Counted from the stretch's first letter, positions 1 through 5,507 are shown. The stretch is 5,507 nt of DNA from a virus (IMGVR_UViG_3300034045_000042:1-5507), one strand, 5' to 3'. Numbers and translations are program-made. Notes: a model not told the origin generated them from the sequence alone.

Positions 1-94
1 TTTCAGTTTTCGGTGATTATTGTCGCGATCTTATAGAAGTTGTTGACGGTCAATTTCACAATTATGGTGGCGAACGACCATTTTCTAAAAAAGA
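1..94. repeat. Terminal direct repeat, copy 1 (circular-closure overlap)
   Basis: Base-by-base comparison shows it is identical to 5414..5507. Confidence 0.95.
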
Positions 95-1067
95 TCATTA
101 TTTGCAATACGAAAATTGGCAAAATGAACAAGGCCAGCGTGTCTATTTCGTGGTTGATGAAGCGCATCTGGCAATGGGTGCAGGTTCATGTGATAAAGAA
201 TTAAAAGAGTTTTTCTCGATGCACCGGCATTATGGTTTTGACATTCTTTTGTTGACTCAGAATTTTCGAAAAATTGATAGAGACGTTAGAGATATGATTC
301 AAATCGGCTATCGTGCGATTAAAAAAAGCATGATAGGTCAAGACGATAAATATATTCTTAAAGTTCATGACGGCGCTAGTAGTTCAACTAGTTCAGTTGT
401 AAATACTTTTGAACGTGAGTATGAAAAGCGTTACTTTCCTTTTTATCAGTCTCACACTAAAAGTAATCAATCTATTAATGAAGCTACGACTAAAGATGTA
501 AAAAAATGGTATAAGCACCCTGCCATTATTCTTTCACCGTTTTTTATTTTTTTTGGTCTAGGTTTCCTTATTAATTCTGTTTCAGCTTTTAATCCCAATA
601 AAAAAATCGAACATGCTGAAAAGTCGTCTTCAACTTCACCAGTTGAAAAGTCGGCTTCAACTTCTCCAGTTGAGCAATCTTCTGCTAAAACTGCTTTAAA
701 AAAAGAATATAAAAATAATGATGATAATGATTTAATTTCTAAATCATTGAATGAATTGATTCTCGAAAGAGAAGTAAAACAGTCGAAAAATTACCACCCC
801 TTTTACAAAGTTAAATTATCTGTTTCGGGTTTTGCTGATTACTTAGATGTTAATCATCGAGTTAAAAAATTATGGATTACTGCCTCGCAAAACGGCCAAG
901 CAGTCTTTACTATTTCAACCCAAGATTTAATGCTTGCGGGCTATAAAGTTTTTGTATTATCTGAATGTTTAGTAAAAGTTGTTTTCTACGAATATTCTGA
1001 TTATTTAACTTGCGACGCACCAACACAAACAGTTAAATTTAACAACGAAGAAATTACTAGGGACTAA
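1..1067 (+). CDS. Zot/pI-like assembly ATPase, 3' portion. It is 5'-truncated by the window edge, the reading frame starts at nt 3, and it continues the ORF that begins at 5278.
   Basis: The frame is open from nt 3 (SVFGDYCRDL...) to the TAA at 1065..1067. It contains a Walker B-like YFVVDEAH and an HRHYGFDILLLTQN motif typical of Zot-family P-loop NTPases. A single TM segment (HPAIILSPFFIFFGLGFLINSV) is followed by a C-terminal domain of about 170 aa. The TTG start at 102 in the ORF track is an artefact of the window cut. Confidence 0.9.
   Translation, partial: SVFGDYCRDLIEVVDGQFHNYGGERPFSKKDHYLQYENWQNEQGQRVYFVVDEAHLAMGAGSCDKELKEFFSMHRHYGFDILLLTQNFRKIDRDVRDMIQIGYRAIKKSMIGQDDKYILKVHDGASSSTSSVVNTFEREYEKRYFPFYQSHTKSNQSINEATTKDVKKWYKHPAIILSPFFIFFGLGFLINSVSAFNPNKKIEHAEKSSSTSPVEKSASTSPVEQSSAKTALKKEYKNNDDNDLISKSLNELILEREVKQSKNYHPFYKVKLSVSGFADYLDVNHRVKKLWITASQNGQAVFTISTQDLMLAGYKVFVLSECLVKVVFYEYSDYLTCDAPTQTVKFNNEEITRD
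618..671 (+). repeat. 27-bp tandem direct repeat x2 inside the pI ORF, encoding EKS(S/A)STSPV twice
   Basis: gaaaagtcgtcttcaacttcaccagtt (618..644) is followed by gaaaagtcggcttcaacttctccagtt (645..671), with 2 mismatches. The repeat is in frame and lies just after the TM segment. Confidence 0.9.
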
Positions 1068-1083
1068 AATTCGAGCGCGTTAG

Positions 1084-1131
1084 AAAATTTAGGGGAGGGG
1101 GCCCCTCTGGGGAAGGGGTTCCATAAATTTT
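1084..1131 (+). other. G/C-rich structured intergenic element (nested hairpins or G-quadruplex motif). Candidate packaging signal or origin-type structure; function unknown.
   Basis: An AAAATTTA (1084..1091) / TAAATTTT (1124..1131) inverted repeat closes the segment GGGGAGGGGGCCCCTCTGGGGAAGGGGTTCCA. Inside it are a 13-nt near-palindrome GAGGGGGCCCCTC (1095..1107) and GGAA-GGGG-TTCC (1111..1122). There are four G-runs of at least 4 (1092-1095, 1097-1101, 1109-1112, 1115-1118) separated by loops of 1, 7 and 2 nt. Confidence 0.6.
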
Positions 1132-1163
1132 ATAACGTGCAACAAGGTAAGGTGTCACATTAC

Positions 1164-2288
1164 ATGCGTATTAATAATAAATATATAGATTCACATTTGC
1201 AAGCCGGTTACTTTATTGATTGGCTTACTGTATCTCAAGAATATAGCGAACCTATTCCTATTTTTTGCCAAGACATCACAAGAAAAATTGATGCAGATAC
1301 TGGCGAATTAAAGTACGAAACACGCACTTTTCGCCAAGAATCTGGCTCGTATGCGACTAGTATTAGCATTAAATCAGATGGCACTAGGCTCACCATTTCT
1401 GGTAACCCTAGCCGTTTTAACCGCCCTGATAATCTTTTCGGTTATACCTCTTTTGGTCAGTGCATTAATGTTTATAACGAATTATTATCAAAATTGTGTT
1501 TACCTGAATTAACTTATTCAGCTAATTTGATACCCGTTCAATCTAATACTGGTAAAATCCGCTTTAGTGGTGATGGTTGTCGTATTTCACAAGTGCACAT
1601 AACTAAAAATTTTTCAGTTGGTAAGGGTAATGAAAAACGTTTTATCAGGTCCTTAGGCTCTTTTGCTTATCGAAATAAAATGCCCTTTTTGTATCCAGAT
1701 GGTAACACTATTGATTGGTTGAAAGGTTCTCGTCGTTTATATATTAAGCTATATAACAAGTCTCAATCTTTAATAAGAGAACGTAAAAAACTTGAACGTT
1801 TATATAATGATGATGAATTGCTATATTATGACAATGTAATTGATTTTTGTATTGATGAGGGCGTTGTACGTCTTGAGTATGAATTTAAGTCGAATTATCT
1901 TAATGATAAATTTACGCCATTTCTAGGTTTTTTCGATGTTAATCAGTTACTTGATTTTAATTTTATTGAAGAAAAACTAAAGAATATGAAAACTAATGCA
2001 ACTGATTATTTATCAATAGCTGATTTACTTATAGAAAATGAGGTTTGTAAAACTCGTCAATCTGCTAATGCTACCCAGTCCTACTATATGATGTGGCTGA
2101 ATGGAATGGATATATCTAATGTTTTGAATCGTTCTCAATTTTATGTTCATAAAAAACGATTAAAAGCTATTGGTATTGATATTACTGTCCCCATGAATGT
2201 TTCTACATTACCAATTCGAGTTAGTAGACAACAAGAAATTTCAGTTAATGATTTAAATATTCCGTCTTGGTATCTTCGCGCAATCTAA
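1164..2288 (+). CDS. gpII-family replication initiation (nicking) protein
   Basis: Several blocks resemble Ff gpII as I recall it. IDWLT lies near the N-terminus. NPSRF..DNLFG matches SPAKVLQGHNVFG. ISQVHITKNF matches ISRIDATF. GVVRLEYEFKSNYL matches GLVRFEARIKTRYL. The C-terminal ...IPSWY... matches ...RPDWY.... I prefer the ATG at 1164, which has TAAGGTG (1148..1154) 9 nt upstream, over the GTG at 1137 given by the ORF track. Confidence 0.85.
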   Translation: MRINNKYIDSHLQAGYFIDWLTVSQEYSEPIPIFCQDITRKIDADTGELKYETRTFRQESGSYATSISIKSDGTRLTISGNPSRFNRPDNLFGYTSFGQCINVYNELLSKLCLPELTYSANLIPVQSNTGKIRFSGDGCRISQVHITKNFSVGKGNEKRFIRSLGSFAYRNKMPFLYPDGNTIDWLKGSRRLYIKLYNKSQSLIRERKKLERLYNDDELLYYDNVIDFCIDEGVVRLEYEFKSNYLNDKFTPFLGFFDVNQLLDFNFIEEKLKNMKTNATDYLSIADLLIENEVCKTRQSANATQSYYMMWLNGMDISNVLNRSQFYVHKKRLKAIGIDITVPMNVSTLPIRVSRQQEISVNDLNIPSWYLRAI

Positions 2289-2289
2289 T

Positions 2290-2318
2290 GGGACGGTCTA
2301 GTAACACGTCCCTTTTTT
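2290..2318 (+). terminator. Rho-independent terminator downstream of the replication gene
   Basis: Stem GGGACG (2290..2295) pairs with CGTCCC (2307..2312) around an 11-nt loop. It is followed immediately by TTTTTT (2313..2318) and starts 2 nt after the gpII stop codon. Confidence 0.7.
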
Positions 2319-2331
2319 CCGGAGTTCCGGA
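2318..2331. repeat. TCCGGA-GT-TCCGGA, two copies of a self-complementary hexamer (both direct and inverted repeat)
   Basis: Read directly from the sequence. It sits between the terminator T-tract and the stop codon of the minus-strand ORF. It could be a second small hairpin for convergent transcription or a protein recognition site. Confidence 0.4.
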
Positions 2332-2335
2332 CTTT

Positions 2336-2497
2336 TCATTTTTTTTCTTTCTTGTTTCTTAGCTCTCTTTCTTCTATAAGTATTTGAATTATTTCGTCAT
2401 TTGATAAAATTCTCCCGTAAATAGGGTATATCTCTATTTTTATCCTTTCTAGCTCGTTTTTTGTTTCTTCATAAACTCTGATTGTTGTCTGTTTCAT
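2336..2497 (-). CDS. Small ribbon-helix-helix (Arc/Mnt/CopG-like) transcriptional regulator, 53 aa
   Basis: My own translation of the minus strand gives MKQTTIRVYEETKNELERIKIEIYPIYGRILSNDEIIQILIEERELRNKKEKK*. The ORF is absent from the ORF track, presumably because it is below the length cut-off. The N-terminal beta-strand-like TTIRV is followed by a helix. YGRILSNDEIIQILIEE parallels P22 Arc NGRSVNSEIYQRVMESF. An AGGT lies 9 nt upstream of the ATG. This is the only minus-strand gene and it is divergent from the main promoter. Confidence 0.6.
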   Translation of the reverse strand: MKQTTIRVYEETKNELERIKIEIYPIYGRILSNDEIIQILIEERELRNKKEKK

Positions 2498-2525
2498 AAA
2501 TTTTACCTAATTTTTAAAAAAACTG

Positions 2526-2553
2526 TTGACAATTTACAAATTATACTTAATAT
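2526..2553 (+). promoter_or_regulatory. Sigma70-type promoter for the rightward operon
   Basis: A perfect -35 TTGACA (2526..2531) is separated by a 16-nt spacer from the -10 TAATAT (2548..2553). An A/T tract upstream (about 2508..2522) resembles an UP element. The promoter lies about 40 nt upstream of the first + strand gene. A perfect TATAAT on the minus strand (plus coordinates 2540..2545) lies inside its spacer. Confidence 0.65.
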
Positions 2554-2595
2554 AGACCGTATACATTGTATTTATTTTTTAACTAGGGCTATCTT

Positions 2596-2880
2596 ATGAA
2601 ACTTAATGTAATTGGTAAACGTTTTTGTACAGGCACTACAAAGCAAGGTAAACAATTTGATTTCGGTACTGTATATGTTCTTGAACCTCTTCAGGATTTT
2701 AAATCACCTAATTTCTCTACCTTTTCATCTTCTGGCTTTTCTGTTTCTGAAATCTCTTGTTCTAAAGATGTTATTAATCAATTACCAGCAGACGGCTATC
2801 CGCTTCAAGTTGATTTTATTCTTGATAATGAGCTTAAGAATGGCCAGTTAGTGCCAGTTATTAAGGGTGTTAAATTTTAA
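2596..2880 (+). CDS. Candidate gV-like ssDNA-binding protein (94 aa)
   Basis: It is the first gene after the promoter. Its size and position match inovirus ssDNA-binding proteins, and the composition looks beta-rich and Lys/Gly-rich. An AGGG lies 7 nt upstream of the ATG. I recognise no specific motif, so the call rests on synteny and size only. Confidence 0.45.
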   Translation: MKLNVIGKRFCTGTTKQGKQFDFGTVYVLEPLQDFKSPNFSTFSSSGFSVSEISCSKDVINQLPADGYPLQVDFILDNELKNGQLVPVIKGVKF

Positions 2881-3036
2881 ATGCTTTTAGTTGAGTCTGA
2901 CATTATGTTTCTTTGCAATCAATGCAAACATTTGTTCTCAATTAATCAACGTAAAACCGTTGAGCGTTTTGGCTTTGTTCTTTGCGCTTGTCCACGTTGC
3001 TTATCTGTGGATGTTCAAATTGCGTGGGGTCAATAA
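2881..3036 (+). CDS. Small zinc-ribbon protein (51 aa; CNQC...CACPRC)
   Basis: My own translation gives MLLVESDIMFLCNQCKHLFSINQRKTVERFGFVLCACPRCLSVDVQIAWGQ*. The ATG directly abuts the TAA of the previous gene, and the stop overlaps the next start (TAATG at 3034..3038). The two Cys knuckles, CxxC and CxCxxC, are about 20 residues apart. An alternative start is the ATG at 2905. Confidence 0.5.
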   Translation: MLLVESDIMFLCNQCKHLFSINQRKTVERFGFVLCACPRCLSVDVQIAWGQ

Positions 3037-3275
3037 TGGCGGTTTGTGTTTTTGCAAATTCTAATGACATTCTTGTATTGGATTCATCGCATGACCTTGC
3101 TACTTGTAGTATGGTTTTGCTTGAATCGAGTGATTACCATGATTTGGTTGATTACTCGCAACTTTCCTCTGGTGAAATTGCTACTTCTTTCGCTTGGGGT
3201 TTTAGTACTTATATGTTTTTTTGGTTTATGGGTTACGTTGTAAAAAATGCCCGTCAAATCATAAGACATATTTAA
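3036..3275 (+). CDS. 79-aa membrane protein with coat-like organisation (acidic N-terminal part, one TM, basic C-terminus). Candidate minor virion or cap protein.
   Basis: The ATG at 3036 overlaps the upstream stop (TAATG), and GGGG lies 6 nt upstream. The sequence reads ...SSDYHDLVDYSQLSSGEIATSFAWGFSTYMFFWFMGYVVKNARQIIRHI*. The TTG at 2982 in the ORF track would overlap the zinc-ribbon ORF and is less likely. Confidence 0.55.
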   Translation: MAVCVFANSNDILVLDSSHDLATCSMVLLESSDYHDLVDYSQLSSGEIATSFAWGFSTYMFFWFMGYVVKNARQIIRHI

Positions 3276-3305
3276 TTTTAATTTAAATTTTGTGAGGTAT
3301 TAATT

Positions 3306-3440
3306 ATGGCTGATATTCTAGCTGCTGTTGATTTAACTTCTGTCGCCACTTTCGTATCATCTGCTGGTGTATTGATCGTTGGCGTTGCTTTGGCGTACAA
3401 GGGCATTCATTTAGCTAAACGTGCTATTAATCGAGCATAA
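3306..3440 (+). CDS. Major coat protein (pVIII-like), 44 aa, with no signal peptide
   Basis: The sequence is MADILAAVDLTSVATFVSSAGVLIVGVALAYKGIHLAKRAINRA*. It has an acidic N-terminus (D3, D9), a single hydrophobic core and a basic C-terminus (K32, K38, R39, R43), which is the canonical inovirus coat layout. A strong SD, GAGGT (3294..3298), lies 7 nt upstream. An in-frame TAA at 3279..3281 excludes a longer precursor. Confidence 0.85.
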   Translation: MADILAAVDLTSVATFVSSAGVLIVGVALAYKGIHLAKRAINRA

Positions 3441-3442
3441 CT

Positions 3443-3535
3443 ATGTTGGCGGGTGTAATGCTCGCCCTCATTCATATACTTATTGTTATGTTGGGGGCAA
3501 TGTGTGCTAAAGAAGTTTGCAGGGGGTTTGGGTGA
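3443..3535 (+). CDS. Possible 30-aa hydrophobic protein (candidate pVII/pIX-like)
   Basis: The sequence is MLAGVMLALIHILIVMLGAMCAKEVCRGFG*. The ATG lies 2 nt after the coat stop, with no SD of its own. Its TGA overlaps the GTG start of the pIII-like gene (GTGA at 3532..3535). Size and hydrophobicity resemble the Ff pVII/pIX proteins (32-33 aa). A short ORF cannot be proven from sequence alone. Confidence 0.35.
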   Translation: MLAGVMLALIHILIVMLGAMCAKEVCRGFG

Positions 3536-4941
3536 TTCTTAATTGTATCAAAAAGGGCTTTATAACGGCTCTTTTTTTTGTGTCTTACAGCTCTATATCT
3601 GGTGTTATAGATGCACCATCCTCTGACCCAAAAGTCGTTTCTGGGTATATTCTCACTTGTACTAATTCTGCGTACGGTACAACTTCTATAGATATTGGGC
3701 TTGTGCCGTCCAAAACTAATGAAAATGGTTTATCTGGTTGTACATCTTGGTATATTAGTGAGATGACGCGAAAATTAATGTCGCACGGTTATTCATCTGT
3801 TTCTGTTCTTTCCGTTCAAGATTACACCGTCGTATTTGAAACAGAAACTGAATCCGGTTCCAAAAATACACAATCTGGTAATATTACATTTTTCTTTGGT
3901 TCTTATTCGTCTACTAAAACTTGTCCCAATGACACAAATATACAAGATTCTTATCCCCTAGATACAAATCAAGACGGCGAAATAGATCGTTGTGTTAATC
4001 CTGACATATTACCTATATATGACGATTGTTCCATTAATGACGTATATAACGTATCTGTTACTGATTCACGTGCTTGCTACACCAAACCTAACGGCTCTAA
4101 GTGTGCTGTTCAAGCTGTTTCCATTGGCGGTTCTTCTGTATATATGGGCGCAGAGGGTAACTGTTATGTTAATGATGAGCAATTAAATGATATTACAGCT
4201 AATCCTATTAATATTACCGAACCTGACCCTGATTTAAATAATTGTACTGATAATGGCGGTCTTTTAGCGTGTGCAGAAGATCCAAATAACGTTTGTGAAA
4301 ATGCTGGTTCTGTTGATTCTAACACTGCCCTTTCTTGTAATGCGCAATGTGGTTTTGTAAATGGTCAATTCTTATGCTTTGATGTTGATTCTGATTCTGA
4401 CGGTATCCCTGATTATTCTGATCCTGATATGATTAACACTGATACTGATACTGGCACTGATACTGGTACTGATACTGATACTGGTACTGATACTGATACT
4501 GGTACTGATACTGGTACTGATACTGGTGGTGTTGTTGTTGGTAATGATGGTAATGTTATTGTTAATGTTCCTGATACAGACCTTTCCCCAGTTGTTGATG
4601 CTATTAAAAAATTAAATGGTACTCGCACCGATGCTGATACTAATGTTTCTAATGGTTTAACATCTTTCTGGGAGTCCGAATATCCTGATGGTTTTAACGG
4701 TTTGCTCGATCAACAAATTACACAATTTAAATCTACTAGATTTTTTACTTTTTTAGATTCTTTTAATGCGTCTATTCCCGCGGGTTCTGAATATGATAAT
4801 TCATTCTGCTTTAATTTGGGTAAGTTAGGCAATTTCGGTTGCCATTCGCTTGATGTTCCGTCCTATGTTTGGTCAGCAATAAGAATTTTTATTCTCATTA
4901 CTTCGGCTTTTGCATGTCGTAAAATTATTTTTGGGGGTTAA
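3532..4941 (+). CDS. pIII-like minor coat / host-adsorption protein
   Basis: I prefer the GTG at 3532, with AGGGGG (3521..3526) 5 nt upstream; the alternative is the TTG at 3517. It begins with a signal-peptide-like N-terminus (MILNCIKKGFITALFFVSYSSISG). A Cys-rich N-terminal region with 14 Cys follows, then a 30-aa TD/TG repeat linker. The C-terminal domain has a two-Cys loop (FCFNLGKLGNFGC) followed by a TM anchor (VWSAIRIFILITSAFACRKIIFGG). This matches the architecture of Ff g3p. Confidence 0.8.
   Translation: MILNCIKKGFITALFFVSYSSISGVIDAPSSDPKVVSGYILTCTNSAYGTTSIDIGLVPSKTNENGLSGCTSWYISEMTRKLMSHGYSSVSVLSVQDYTVVFETETESGSKNTQSGNITFFFGSYSSTKTCPNDTNIQDSYPLDTNQDGEIDRCVNPDILPIYDDCSINDVYNVSVTDSRACYTKPNGSKCAVQAVSIGGSSVYMGAEGNCYVNDEQLNDITANPINITEPDPDLNNCTDNGGLLACAEDPNNVCENAGSVDSNTALSCNAQCGFVNGQFLCFDVDSDSDGIPDYSDPDMINTDTDTGTDTGTDTDTGTDTDTGTDTGTDTGGVVVGNDGNVIVNVPDTDLSPVVDAIKKLNGTRTDADTNVSNGLTSFWESEYPDGFNGLLDQQITQFKSTRFFTFLDSFNASIPAGSEYDNSFCFNLGKLGNFGCHSLDVPSYVWSAIRIFILITSAFACRKIIFGG
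4438..4527 (+). repeat. Hexanucleotide tandem repeat, 15 units of ACTGAT/ACTGGY, encoding (Thr-Asp/Thr-Gly)15
   Basis: Read directly from the sequence. The units are actgat x9, actggt x5 and actggc x1, all in frame within the pIII-like ORF, with nearly uniform codon choice. Confidence 0.95.
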
Positions 4942-4942
4942 A

Positions 4943-5272
4943 ATGCTAGATTTTCTCGGCGATAAACTATTTTATTTATTTGATACTCTTAAGGATTTTT
5001 TATATAGACTGGTTTTAACTATTTATGATATTCAAAAAGATTTGTTTTTGTGGATTTTCGAACAAGTATCAACTGGCGTGATTTATCTTGTGGATGGTCT
5101 TGGTTACTTGTTCGATGGCTTGAATATTACTCAATACATATCAGCAATACCACCACAGACTGCTTATATTATGAATCTTATCGGCTTTGGTGAGGCGATG
5201 GGTATGATAATCACTAGCTTAACTATTCGCATGTTATTACAGTTAATACCTTTTACTAGGTTAGGGAGTTAA
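4943..5272 (+). CDS. pVI/Ace-like minor coat membrane protein (109 aa)
   Basis: The ATG at 4943 has GGGGG (4933..4937) 5 nt upstream and lies 1 nt after the pIII stop. The protein is hydrophobic and sits between pIII and pI. Its C-terminal part, ...IPPQTAYIMNLIGFGEAMGMIITSLTIRMLLQLIPF..., resembles the ...LPPQ...RF(L/I)LRxIPF... tail I recall from CTXphi Ace / DUF2523-type proteins. The TTG at 4910 in the ORF track would overlap pIII and is less likely. Confidence 0.7.
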   Translation: MLDFLGDKLFYLFDTLKDFLYRLVLTIYDIQKDLFLWIFEQVSTGVIYLVDGLGYLFDGLNITQYISAIPPQTAYIMNLIGFGEAMGMIITSLTIRMLLQLIPFTRLGS

Positions 5273-5277
5273 GAAAA

Positions 5278-5507
5278 ATGGCTATTAATGGTATACAAGG
5301 TAAGCCGGGTGGCGGTAAATCTTATGAAGCTGTCGTAAATCATATAATCCCAACTATTACGCGAGATAGACGAAAAGTTGTTACTAATTTACCCTTGAAT
5401 GTTGAACATTTTGTTTCAGTTTTCGGTGATTATTGTCGCGATCTTATAGAAGTTGTTGACGGTCAATTTCACAATTATGGTGGCGAACGACCATTTTCTA
5501 AAAAAGA
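5278..5507 (+). CDS. Zot/pI-like assembly ATPase, N-terminal portion. It is 3'-truncated by the window edge and continues at nt 3 through the circular junction.
   Basis: The sequence starts MAINGIQGKPGGGKSYEAV..., giving a Walker A motif GKPGGGKS. The SD GGGAG (5264..5268) lies 9 nt upstream. 5278..5413 plus 1..1067 gives 1,203 nt, or 400 aa plus stop, with the frame preserved. Confidence 0.92.
   Translation, partial: MAINGIQGKPGGGKSYEAVVNHIIPTITRDRRKVVTNLPLNVEHFVSVFGDYCRDLIEVVDGQFHNYGGERPFSKK
5414..5507. repeat. Terminal direct repeat, copy 2 (circular-closure overlap)
   Basis: It is identical to 1..94. Confidence 0.95.

Follow-up and report, generated by a model that had tools for sequence, protein, structure and literature searches.

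We analyzed the contig IMGVR_UViG_3300034045_000042, which carries the genes of a filamentous phage of the inovirus type. The contig is one entire JGI contig of 5,507 nt from an uncultured virus, probably of a marine metagenome, and this whole stretch of DNA is called the window below. Nucleotides 1-94 of the window are 100% identical to nucleotides 5414-5507, and 94 nt is the longest exact overlap between the two ends. A repeat scan showed that this terminal copy is the sole long direct repeat in the window, the others being short tandem repeats inside genes. An exact 94-nt match in 5.5 kb cannot have arisen by chance. With the repeat counted once, the genome unit is 5,413 nt long with a G+C content of 34.4%, and its + strand is T-rich (37% T, with an AT skew down to -0.3). 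The repeat copies and the gene that they interrupt, pI, are placed as follows.

1-94, no strand: 5' copy of the terminal redundancy, inside pI; identical to 5414-5507
5414-5507, no strand: second (3') copy of the repeat; the genome unit spans 1-5413, and an independent contig (L026, below) passes this point unbroken
5278-5413, + strand: N-terminal 45 codons of the pI/Zot ATPase, joined in frame; Walker A motif GKPGGGKS at aa 8; continues at nt 1
1-1067, + strand: rest of the 400-aa pI/Zot; Walker B motif YFVVDE at aa 94; transmembrane segment at aa 218-242; Ser/Thr/Pro-rich 27-nt repeat at 617-673

Joining 5278-5413 to 1-1067 gave 1,203 nt, that is, 400 codons and a stop with zero internal stops. 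The joined gene starts with ATG, has GGGAG ahead of the start, and is preceded by an in-frame stop 21 nt upstream, at 5257. An earlier reading of the contig, made from the sequence alone, had claimed that the ends are identical and that a pI/Zot open reading frame (ORF) broken by them rejoins in frame to 400 aa, and our overlap comparison and ORF join agree with both statements. The assignment to the Zot family also held, in that the joined protein matched PF05707 at residues 7-199 with an E-value of 1.7e-24 (86.8 bits, cut-off 20.3) and aligned end to end with phrog_197 (E 6e-72).

Closure of the unit and its alternatives

Exact-protein look-ups retrieved four near-identical contigs that had been assembled independently from two other JGI samples.

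L017: window 103-2843, 98.6% identity
L006: window 1609-3555, 99.6% identity
L007: window 3195-4298, 99.8% identity
L026 (sample 3300034044): window 4864 to 5413 and on from 1 to 1305, 96.9% identity

All 1,883 nt of L026 align to the permuted unit, so that the contig crosses the 5413/1 join, and it carries an intact pI of 409 aa. The four contigs tile the whole unit apart from 4299-4863, the repeat-rich part of pIII, and no host or other non-phage DNA was found in them. At the 55% level of similarity, every relative that shares the morphogenesis genes of the window has pVI followed by an unbroken pI, colinear with the joined window. Three contigs of a second related lineage (L019-L021), from three samples, are 6,513-nt units in three rotations with terminal repeats of 123-127 nt. 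Taken together, the identical ends, the restored pI, the passage of L026 across the join and the gene set described below suggest that the window is very likely one complete 5,413-nt unit of an uncultivated inovirus (Tubulavirales, Inoviridae-like). The sequence-only reading had likewise taken it for a whole unit and not for a fragment.

Several observations weigh against this conclusion. Nucleotides 4299-4863, around the pIII repeats, have no independent near-identical contig. The overlap of 94 nt differs from the 123- and 127-nt overlaps of the related contigs. A free circle and a tandem array or concatemer would yield the same contigs. The window encodes a putative divergent regulator on the - strand, where inovirus repressors are usually found according to the international virus taxonomy committee, ICTV (PMC8491893), and such a regulator is typical of temperate, integrating inoviruses (PMC8491893). 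Among the relatives, L016 is integrated in Pseudoalteromonas rubra, and L001 and L023 adjoin an integrase.

We asked what else could have produced these contigs. An assembly artefact could, either as a chimera or as a fragment of a larger genome bounded by the 94-nt repeat. The length of the overlap is unusual, but the repeat lies inside one gene and the join restores a full-length pI that is colinear with hundreds of homologues. Moreover, L026, an independent assembly of another sample, crosses the join, and the gene order equals that of related closed circles. We regard an artefact as extremely improbable.

Another conceivable source is a chromosomally integrated prophage array of tandem head-to-tail copies, such as CTXphi produces, or a concatemer made by rolling-circle replication. 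The unit would then still be 5,413 nt, but the sequenced molecule would be no free circle. The terminal repeat and the join-spanning contig are equally expected from such an array, and because both structures give identical contigs, circle and array are not separable from contigs. The divergent - strand regulator, the integrated state of L016 and the integrases beside L001 and L023 fit an array as well. However, the unit encodes no integrase, and none of the five contigs of the window phage (from at least three assemblies) has a host flank. The best dif-like XerCD sites scored 17-18 of 28 against the E. coli and V. cholerae dif sequences, equal to the shuffled expectation of 17.1-17.7 (18/28 at best, against a null mean maximum of 17.7), and the dif of the host may differ from these. 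An origin from an array or a concatemer is very unlikely in our judgment.

The pI gene itself differs between the samples. The 27-nt repeat at 617-673, which encodes a Ser/Thr/Pro-rich 9-aa unit of the linker, is present in 2.1 copies in the window, whereas L017 and L026 have one extra copy, which lengthens pI from 400 to 409 aa. Judging from these contigs, the repeat of the periplasmic linker is a copy-number polymorphism between samples.

Genes of the unit

Genes were assigned by Pfam and PHROG scans, by hydropathy and motif checks and by conservation in relatives. Ten genes cover 95% of the circle, and all but one are on the + strand. In addition to pI, they are:

1164-2288, + strand: gpII rolling-circle initiator, 374 aa; alternative GTG start at 1137; the JGI call is the same 374-aa product
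2336-2497, - strand: reg53, 53-aa ORF, putative regulator or repressor by position; phrog_2503 (E 4e-6), a function-unknown family
2596-2880, + strand: single-stranded DNA-binding protein (ssb) candidate, analogue of gpV/RstB, 94 aa; by phrog_929, RstB-like (E 4e-9), and position
2881-3036, + strand: zn51, zinc-ribbon-like 51-aa ORF; abuts ssb, its stop overlaps the p79 start, and it fills the gap between ssb and p79 exactly
3036-3275, + strand: p79, small protein of the structural module; phrog_2924 (E 5e-12), same position in relatives
3306-3440, + strand: major coat, 44 aa, no signal peptide; phrog_3354 (E 5e-21) over 44/44 residues
3443-3535, + strand: p30, 30 aa, hydrophobic throughout; candidate minor coat of the pVII/pIX type
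3532-4941, + strand: pIII-like adsorption/termination protein, 469 aa; GTG start at 3532, TTG at 3517; C-terminal membrane anchor
4910-5272, + strand: pVI-like minor coat, 109-120 aa; PF10734 DUF2523 (30.5 bits, cut-off 22.1), phrog_974 and phrog_306 (Ace-like)

The gpII protein matched the replication initiator families PF05144 (47.8 bits, cut-off 21.7) and PF05155 (57.9 bits, cut-off 25) as well as phrog_702 (E 2e-74), and the gpII call of the sequence-only reading is thereby borne out by both family models. The assignment of ssb is weaker than that of gpII. The protein is 42-47% identical to the equivalent ORFs of the second-lineage loci L018 and L019, and the L018 homologue has a faint match to PF07459 (CTX_RstB). 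An AlphaFold2 (AF2) model of ssb was all-beta and of such low confidence (predicted local distance difference test, pLDDT, 45.8) as to be unusable. PDB sequence searches with ssb and reg53 returned nothing meaningful.

The coat protein shows the charge layout of an inovirus major coat, with an acidic N-terminus (D3, D9), a hydrophobic core and a basic C-terminus (K32, H35, K38, R39, R43); its match to Pfam PF25631 was below threshold (14 bits versus 27). A Pf3-like coat was also considered, but BLASTP with a Pf3 coat query gave no alignment at E <= 100, and the likeness is confined to the length and the lack of a leader. The p30 ORF between coat and pIII is conserved by tblastn in L002, L003, L014-L016 and L027. 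The C-terminus of pIII matched phrog_31956 (E 1e-29), and its last 100 aa are 39-55% identical in relatives. Exact-product look-ups with pIII (469 aa) and pVI (109 and 120 aa) returned no recorded protein. The earlier statement that most of the proteins could not be tied to a family did not survive the PHROG and Pfam scans, in which ssb (phrog_929), pVI (DUF2523), p79 (phrog_2924), pIII (phrog_31956) and the - strand ORF (phrog_2503) all found one. The sole genes without any family match are zn51 and p30. The zn51 protein has a CxxC...CxCxxC pattern (Cys 12, 15, 35, 37 and 40) with sub-threshold Pfam matches to HypA, zf-DNL and Zn_ribbon_8; the ORF is absent from the JGI calls, and no homologue was found in either related lineage.

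The sequence-only reading had also credited the unit with a full set of replication, coat and assembly genes. All three classes are indeed present, but the set lacks a pIV secretin. A Pfam scan of the unit found no integrase among the encoded genes. An Rfam search at E <= 1 gave 0 matches, and no tRNA genes were found. A rival reading takes the unit for a filamentous element that is defective or a satellite, dependent on a helper phage and not autonomous. Its very small size (5,413 nt), the lack of pIV and the lack of an assigned function for zn51 and p30 would agree with such an element. Satellites such as RS1, however, have no morphogenesis genes, whereas the genes for replication, ssb, the major and minor coats, pIII, pVI and pI are all intact here, and pIV is commonly missing from the relatives looked at, phiAFP1 being an example. 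We consider a satellite highly unlikely and keep to a complete, autonomous phage unit.

All genes for structure and replication are carried by the T-rich strand, an indirect sign that the + strand may be packaged as single-stranded DNA (ssDNA) in a flexible filament.

Two of the genes showed further features. The pIII gene contains at 4438-4525 about 15 copies of the hexanucleotide ACTGAT/ACTGGT, encoding a (TD/TG)n, that is, (TDTG)n, linker that we liken to the Gly-rich linkers of Ff pIII. The repeat gave spurious blastn matches to Staphylococcus plasmids. The repeat region probably breaks assemblies, because L007 ends at 4298 and L026 begins at 4864. As for reg53, - strand ORFs at the equivalent position and in the same orientation are present in L018-L021, L027 and L028. 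A single-sequence AF2 model of reg53 was a two-helix hairpin (pLDDT 84.5); a ribbon-helix-helix fold was unsupported, all Foldseek matches against the PDB having E > 2. L006 and L017 share five substitutions in reg53 and its 3' flank (2332, 2344, 2355, 2396 and 2423, within 2332-2423). Between samples, reg53 is the most variable gene (96% aa identity), and the flanking gpII and ssb are 100% identical at the protein level.

Relatives, mosaic makeup and classification

We compared the unit with deposited phages. Megablast against 50,697 phage records gave no match, sensitive blastn covered at most 3% of the genome, and the matches to plasmids were solely a Pseudoalteromonas Zot gene and low-complexity repeats. 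At the protein level, the best identities to deposited phages were 33-35% for pI (Vibrio inoviruses), 38% for gpII (Vibrio cyclitrophicus phages; 35% for Alteromonas phiAFP1) and 54-59% for the coat (CoaB of Vibrio VGJ, VEJ and Vf33 and of Pseudomonas phage 17897).

Closer relatives were found among uncultivated viruses, and they fell into two sets. The proteins p79, coat, p30, the pIII C-terminus, pVI and pI matched L001-L016, L027 and L028 alone, with pI 49-61% identical; over the morphogenesis module, identity to the Colwellia and Pseudoalteromonas inoviruses is about 55-60%. This set includes a Colwellia metagenome-assembled genome (MAG) from sea ice (L014, JAWUXK010000075), Pseudoalteromonas sp. 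NBT06-2 contig224 (L015), the IMG/VR uncultivated virus genomes (UViGs) L001-L005 and OJIR01001532 (L008); the pI genes of the Colwellia MAG and the Pseudoalteromonas genomes are 49-57% identical to that of the window. Like the window, these viruses have the order p79-coat-p30-pIII(C-terminus)-pVI-pI, a coat 45-73% identical to that of the window, a G-rich hairpin on the + strand, a size of about 5.4-6.6 kb and a low G+C content (35-40%). Unlike the window, they carry an unrelated replication module: tblastn found no homologues of the window gpII, regulator, ssb or zn51 in them, and they have other Rep types, such as Rep_1 (PF01446) in L011. The assembly cassette thus occurs with at least two other replication cassettes, one with Rep_1 and one with an unassigned Rep and a PF02303 gene-V-type ssb.

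In contrast, homologues of gpII (48-53%) and ssb (42-47%) occur in L018-L021 alone, where L019-L021 are JGI contigs Ga0209395, Ga0209396 and Ga0105356 and L018 is an ENA contig; a gpII scan of IMG/VR gave no relative. These loci share with the window the - strand ORF between gpII and ssb and the order pI-gpII-regulator(-)-ssb-coat-pIII-pVI. They differ in having a coat of 72-77 aa with a signal peptide, a coat, pVI and pI too diverged for tblastn, extra small ORFs between pI and gpII, and a size about 1.1 kb larger. Because the modules match separate sets of relatives, the genome, judged by these matches, is a two-lineage recombinant, with morphogenesis genes from one lineage and the gpII/ssb replication module from another. 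The relatives point to a low-G+C marine Alteromonadales bacterium, of the Colwellia/Pseudoalteromonas type, as the probable host. Pseudoalteromonas phage f327 (6,114 bp, PMC4817708) belongs to the same ecological group and is likened to the window by that group, not by sequence. One relative, L001 (5,127 nt), might have been an even smaller complete genome, but we rejected this: it has an integrase, no detectable coat and no terminal repeat, and is probably a fragment.

We then compared the unit with described Inoviridae. A pI/Zot-type ATPase with an N-terminal P-loop and one transmembrane segment is the only universal inovirus marker (Roux 2019, PMC6813254). The unit has this ATPase, a small coat with the expected charge layout and a Rep with a more weakly assigned ssb, and the circular genome of the family is matched by the 94-nt redundancy, the in-frame pI and the crossing of the join by L026. 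Classified Inoviridae have genomes of 5.5-10.6 kb, 7-15 proteins and a G+C content of 40.5-60.7% (ICTV, PMC8491893). The 10 ORFs of the unit lie inside this range; its length of 5,413 nt is 1.6% under the minimum, and its G+C content of 34.4% is about 6 points under. The ranges summarize the members classified so far and do not serve as diagnostic criteria. To our knowledge, the smallest classified Inoviridae genome is that of the Ralstonia phage PE226, and the lower size bound probably reflects it. PE226 (NC_015297, 5,475 nt) is described as a hybrid that combines one lineage's replication module with the structural and assembly modules of another (PMC4471427). It has a mosaic makeup in common with the window, but its host and its sequence are unrelated and its G+C content is high; the window unit is 62 nt smaller. 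The sequence-only reading was therefore right to place the unit at the small end of the inoviruses.

For the genus level, the ICTV guideline asks for >50% amino-acid similarity in both pI and CoaB (PMC8491893). Against deposited phages, pI reaches 33-35% and the coat 54-59%, values that are identities where the guideline refers to similarity, and pI thus stays below the threshold. The unit probably represents a new genus relative to deposited and cultured phages, and by its protein matches it would group with the uncultured Colwellia/Pseudoalteromonas viruses. The Vibrio phages VGJphi, VEJphi and Vf33 (Villovirus), fs1 (Fibrovirus) and the V. cyclitrophicus phages PQ1892xx/PQ1893xx resemble the window in their modular layout, the absence of pIV, the 44-aa coat type (54-59%), pI (33-35% over 96% of its length) and gpII (38%). 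They differ in being larger (6.1-8 kb) and in a pI far under the genus guideline. Several of them integrate via XerCD/dif, whereas the window showed no dif-like site above chance. Alteromonas phiAFP1 (5,859-5,986 nt, PMC9769780), an inovirus of marine Alteromonadales that is likewise small, also has a regulator on the - strand, a similarly sized coat, a Zot-like pI, no pIV and a gpII-family Rep 35% identical to the window gpII, but its regulator lies upstream of rep and not between rep and ssb, its pI is 25% identical, and its G+C content is 41%.

Inoviruses of about 5-15 kb, including 922 circular metagenomic contigs, have been described (Roux 2019, PMC6813254), and contigs of 5.4-5.7 kb are common among the relatives of the window phage itself. 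Because of these, the complete genome, although correctly identified, is of an expected kind, and it leaves the understanding of inoviruses unchanged. For a group of marine filamentous phages that is abundant but uncultured, it supplies a complete reference genome of very compact size, which is of modest practical value, and it slightly shifts the lower limits of size and G+C content quoted for Inoviridae. It is also a clean example of module swapping, in which one morphogenesis cassette occurs with gpII-type, Rep_1-type and other replication cassettes; recombination of modules is a known pattern in filamentous phages such as PE226 (PMC4471427).

The post-pI hairpin and the control regions

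The intergenic regions contain the following features.

1075-1140, + strand: intergenic hairpin directly 3' of pI, with the core AGGGGG-CCCC-TCT-GGGG-AAGGGG at 1096-1117; candidate packaging signal or - strand origin
2290-2331, + strand: two GC hairpins 3' of gpII, GGGACG..CGTCCC followed by T6, then TCCGGAGTTCCGGA; by sequence, fold and terminator scan
2526-2553, + strand: best sigma-70-like promoter of the window, TTGACA-16-TAATAT, 10/12 matches, 43 nt 5' of ssb

The hairpin at 1075-1140 is the most stable of the circle (DNA fold -18 kcal/mol, z -4.9). Using a regex scan and covariance models, we found that it belongs to a motif of the morphogenesis lineage that consists of [R]GGG, a GC stem of 4-5 bp with a 2-5-nt loop, and (G)AGGKG, as in GGGAGGG-stem-GGGAGG. 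The number of sites found was 13, compared with about 0.25 in shuffled loci. Copies of the motif have the following positions.

Window: 1092-1120
L001: 1914-1943
L002: 8611-8638
L003: 1980-2007
L008: 1948-1977
L009: 11159-11187
L010: 1687-1716
L011: 408-439
L014: 3159-3186
L015: 4788-4816
L016: 4632-4661
L028: 5311-5341

The motif is present in a single copy per genome, on the + strand only, and usually <=60 nt from the pI stop, the exceptions being L004/L011 and the integrated L016. A covariance model made from three copies finds the remaining copies, all on the + strand. In the covariance alignment 96% of the cells are paired, compared with 39-63% in slid controls, and the stem shows a compensatory change from CCCGC/GCGGG to CCCAC/GTGGG. 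Against this, a model built without the window matches the window at 1092-1120 alone and weakly (18 bits, E 0.19 in 169 kb). The motif was absent from the gpII-lineage loci L018-L025 when these were searched with the covariance model. Being confined to the assembly-gene lineage, it would travel with the assembly genes and not with the replication genes, and over the loci compared its occurrence is independent of Rep type. A packaging signal fits these observations better than a replication origin does. The window hairpin comes directly after pI, its last morphogenesis gene, just as the packaging signal of Ff follows the last Ff morphogenesis gene, gene IV.

In L016 (Pseudoalteromonas rubra S2676, integrated at 4632-11158), the motif is situated some 6.5 kb upstream of the stop codon of pI, at the opposite end of the prophage. 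This would place the att break between the motif and pI; the L016 prophage showed no convincing direct repeats at its flanks. The G-tracts of the window also match the canonical G-quadruplex pattern, which is not kept in all relatives. As a conserved, strand-specific candidate for a packaging signal, the post-pI hairpin could be useful if the lineage were developed into vectors for marine Alteromonadales. The more ambitious proposition joins several of these points: that the unit is the smallest autonomous genome of Inoviridae type so far described (5,413 nt, 10 genes, no secretin or integrase), that it represents a new low-G+C marine genus, and that its hairpin is a lineage packaging signal travelling with the morphogenesis module and allowing it to combine with at least three unrelated replication modules. 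We put it forward tentatively and think it rather unlikely to hold in full.

On the 3' side of gpII, the hairpin with T6 at 2290-2318 looks like an intrinsic terminator. Within the spacer of the promoter at 2526-2553, a perfect TATAAT can be read on the - strand at 2545-2540. The overlap of the + promoter with this - strand TATAAT suggests mutually exclusive divergent promoters, one for a long operon and one for reg53. Downstream of the + promoter, all genes abut or overlap one another as far as pI and on to gpII.

These features can be arranged into a life cycle whose step order follows the Ff/CTX paradigm (PMC8491893). Its application here is our own inference, and so are the ssDNA nature of the genome, the map of its transcription, a role of the hairpin in packaging, the recourse to a host secretin, the identity of the host and an episomal state. 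Most likely, the contig would have been assembled from replicative-form circles or from the ssDNA of virions, with the T-rich + strand as the packaged strand, and the assembler would have run 94 nt past the start. The promoter at 2526-2553 would drive an operon of nearly genome length (ssb, zn51, p79, coat, p30, pIII, pVI, pI and gpII) ending at the hairpin and T-run at 2290-2318, and reg53, divergent from the overlapping promoter and possibly transcribed from the - strand TATAAT at 2545-2540, would be a probable switch or repressor. The gpII protein would nick the + strand and start rolling-circle replication, and the RstB-like protein would coat the progeny ssDNA. The hairpin at 1075-1140 would probably mark this DNA for packaging, after which the membrane ATPase pI would thread it through the envelope while the leaderless 44-aa coat replaces ssb. 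Because no pIV is encoded, a secretin of the host would be needed for export. The phage is probably episomal, because it has no integrase and no dif-like site.

Both non-coding control regions contain the 15-nt sequence GTTYCATAAATTTTA: one copy (1118-1132) belongs to the 3' arm of the hairpin after pI, and the other (2491-2505) covers the start codon of reg53. Chance would be expected to give a 14/15 match to GTTYCATAAATTTTA at some place in the genome but is unlikely to put it into both of the short regions between genes, and GTTYCATAAATTTTA may be a shared, putative protein-binding site.

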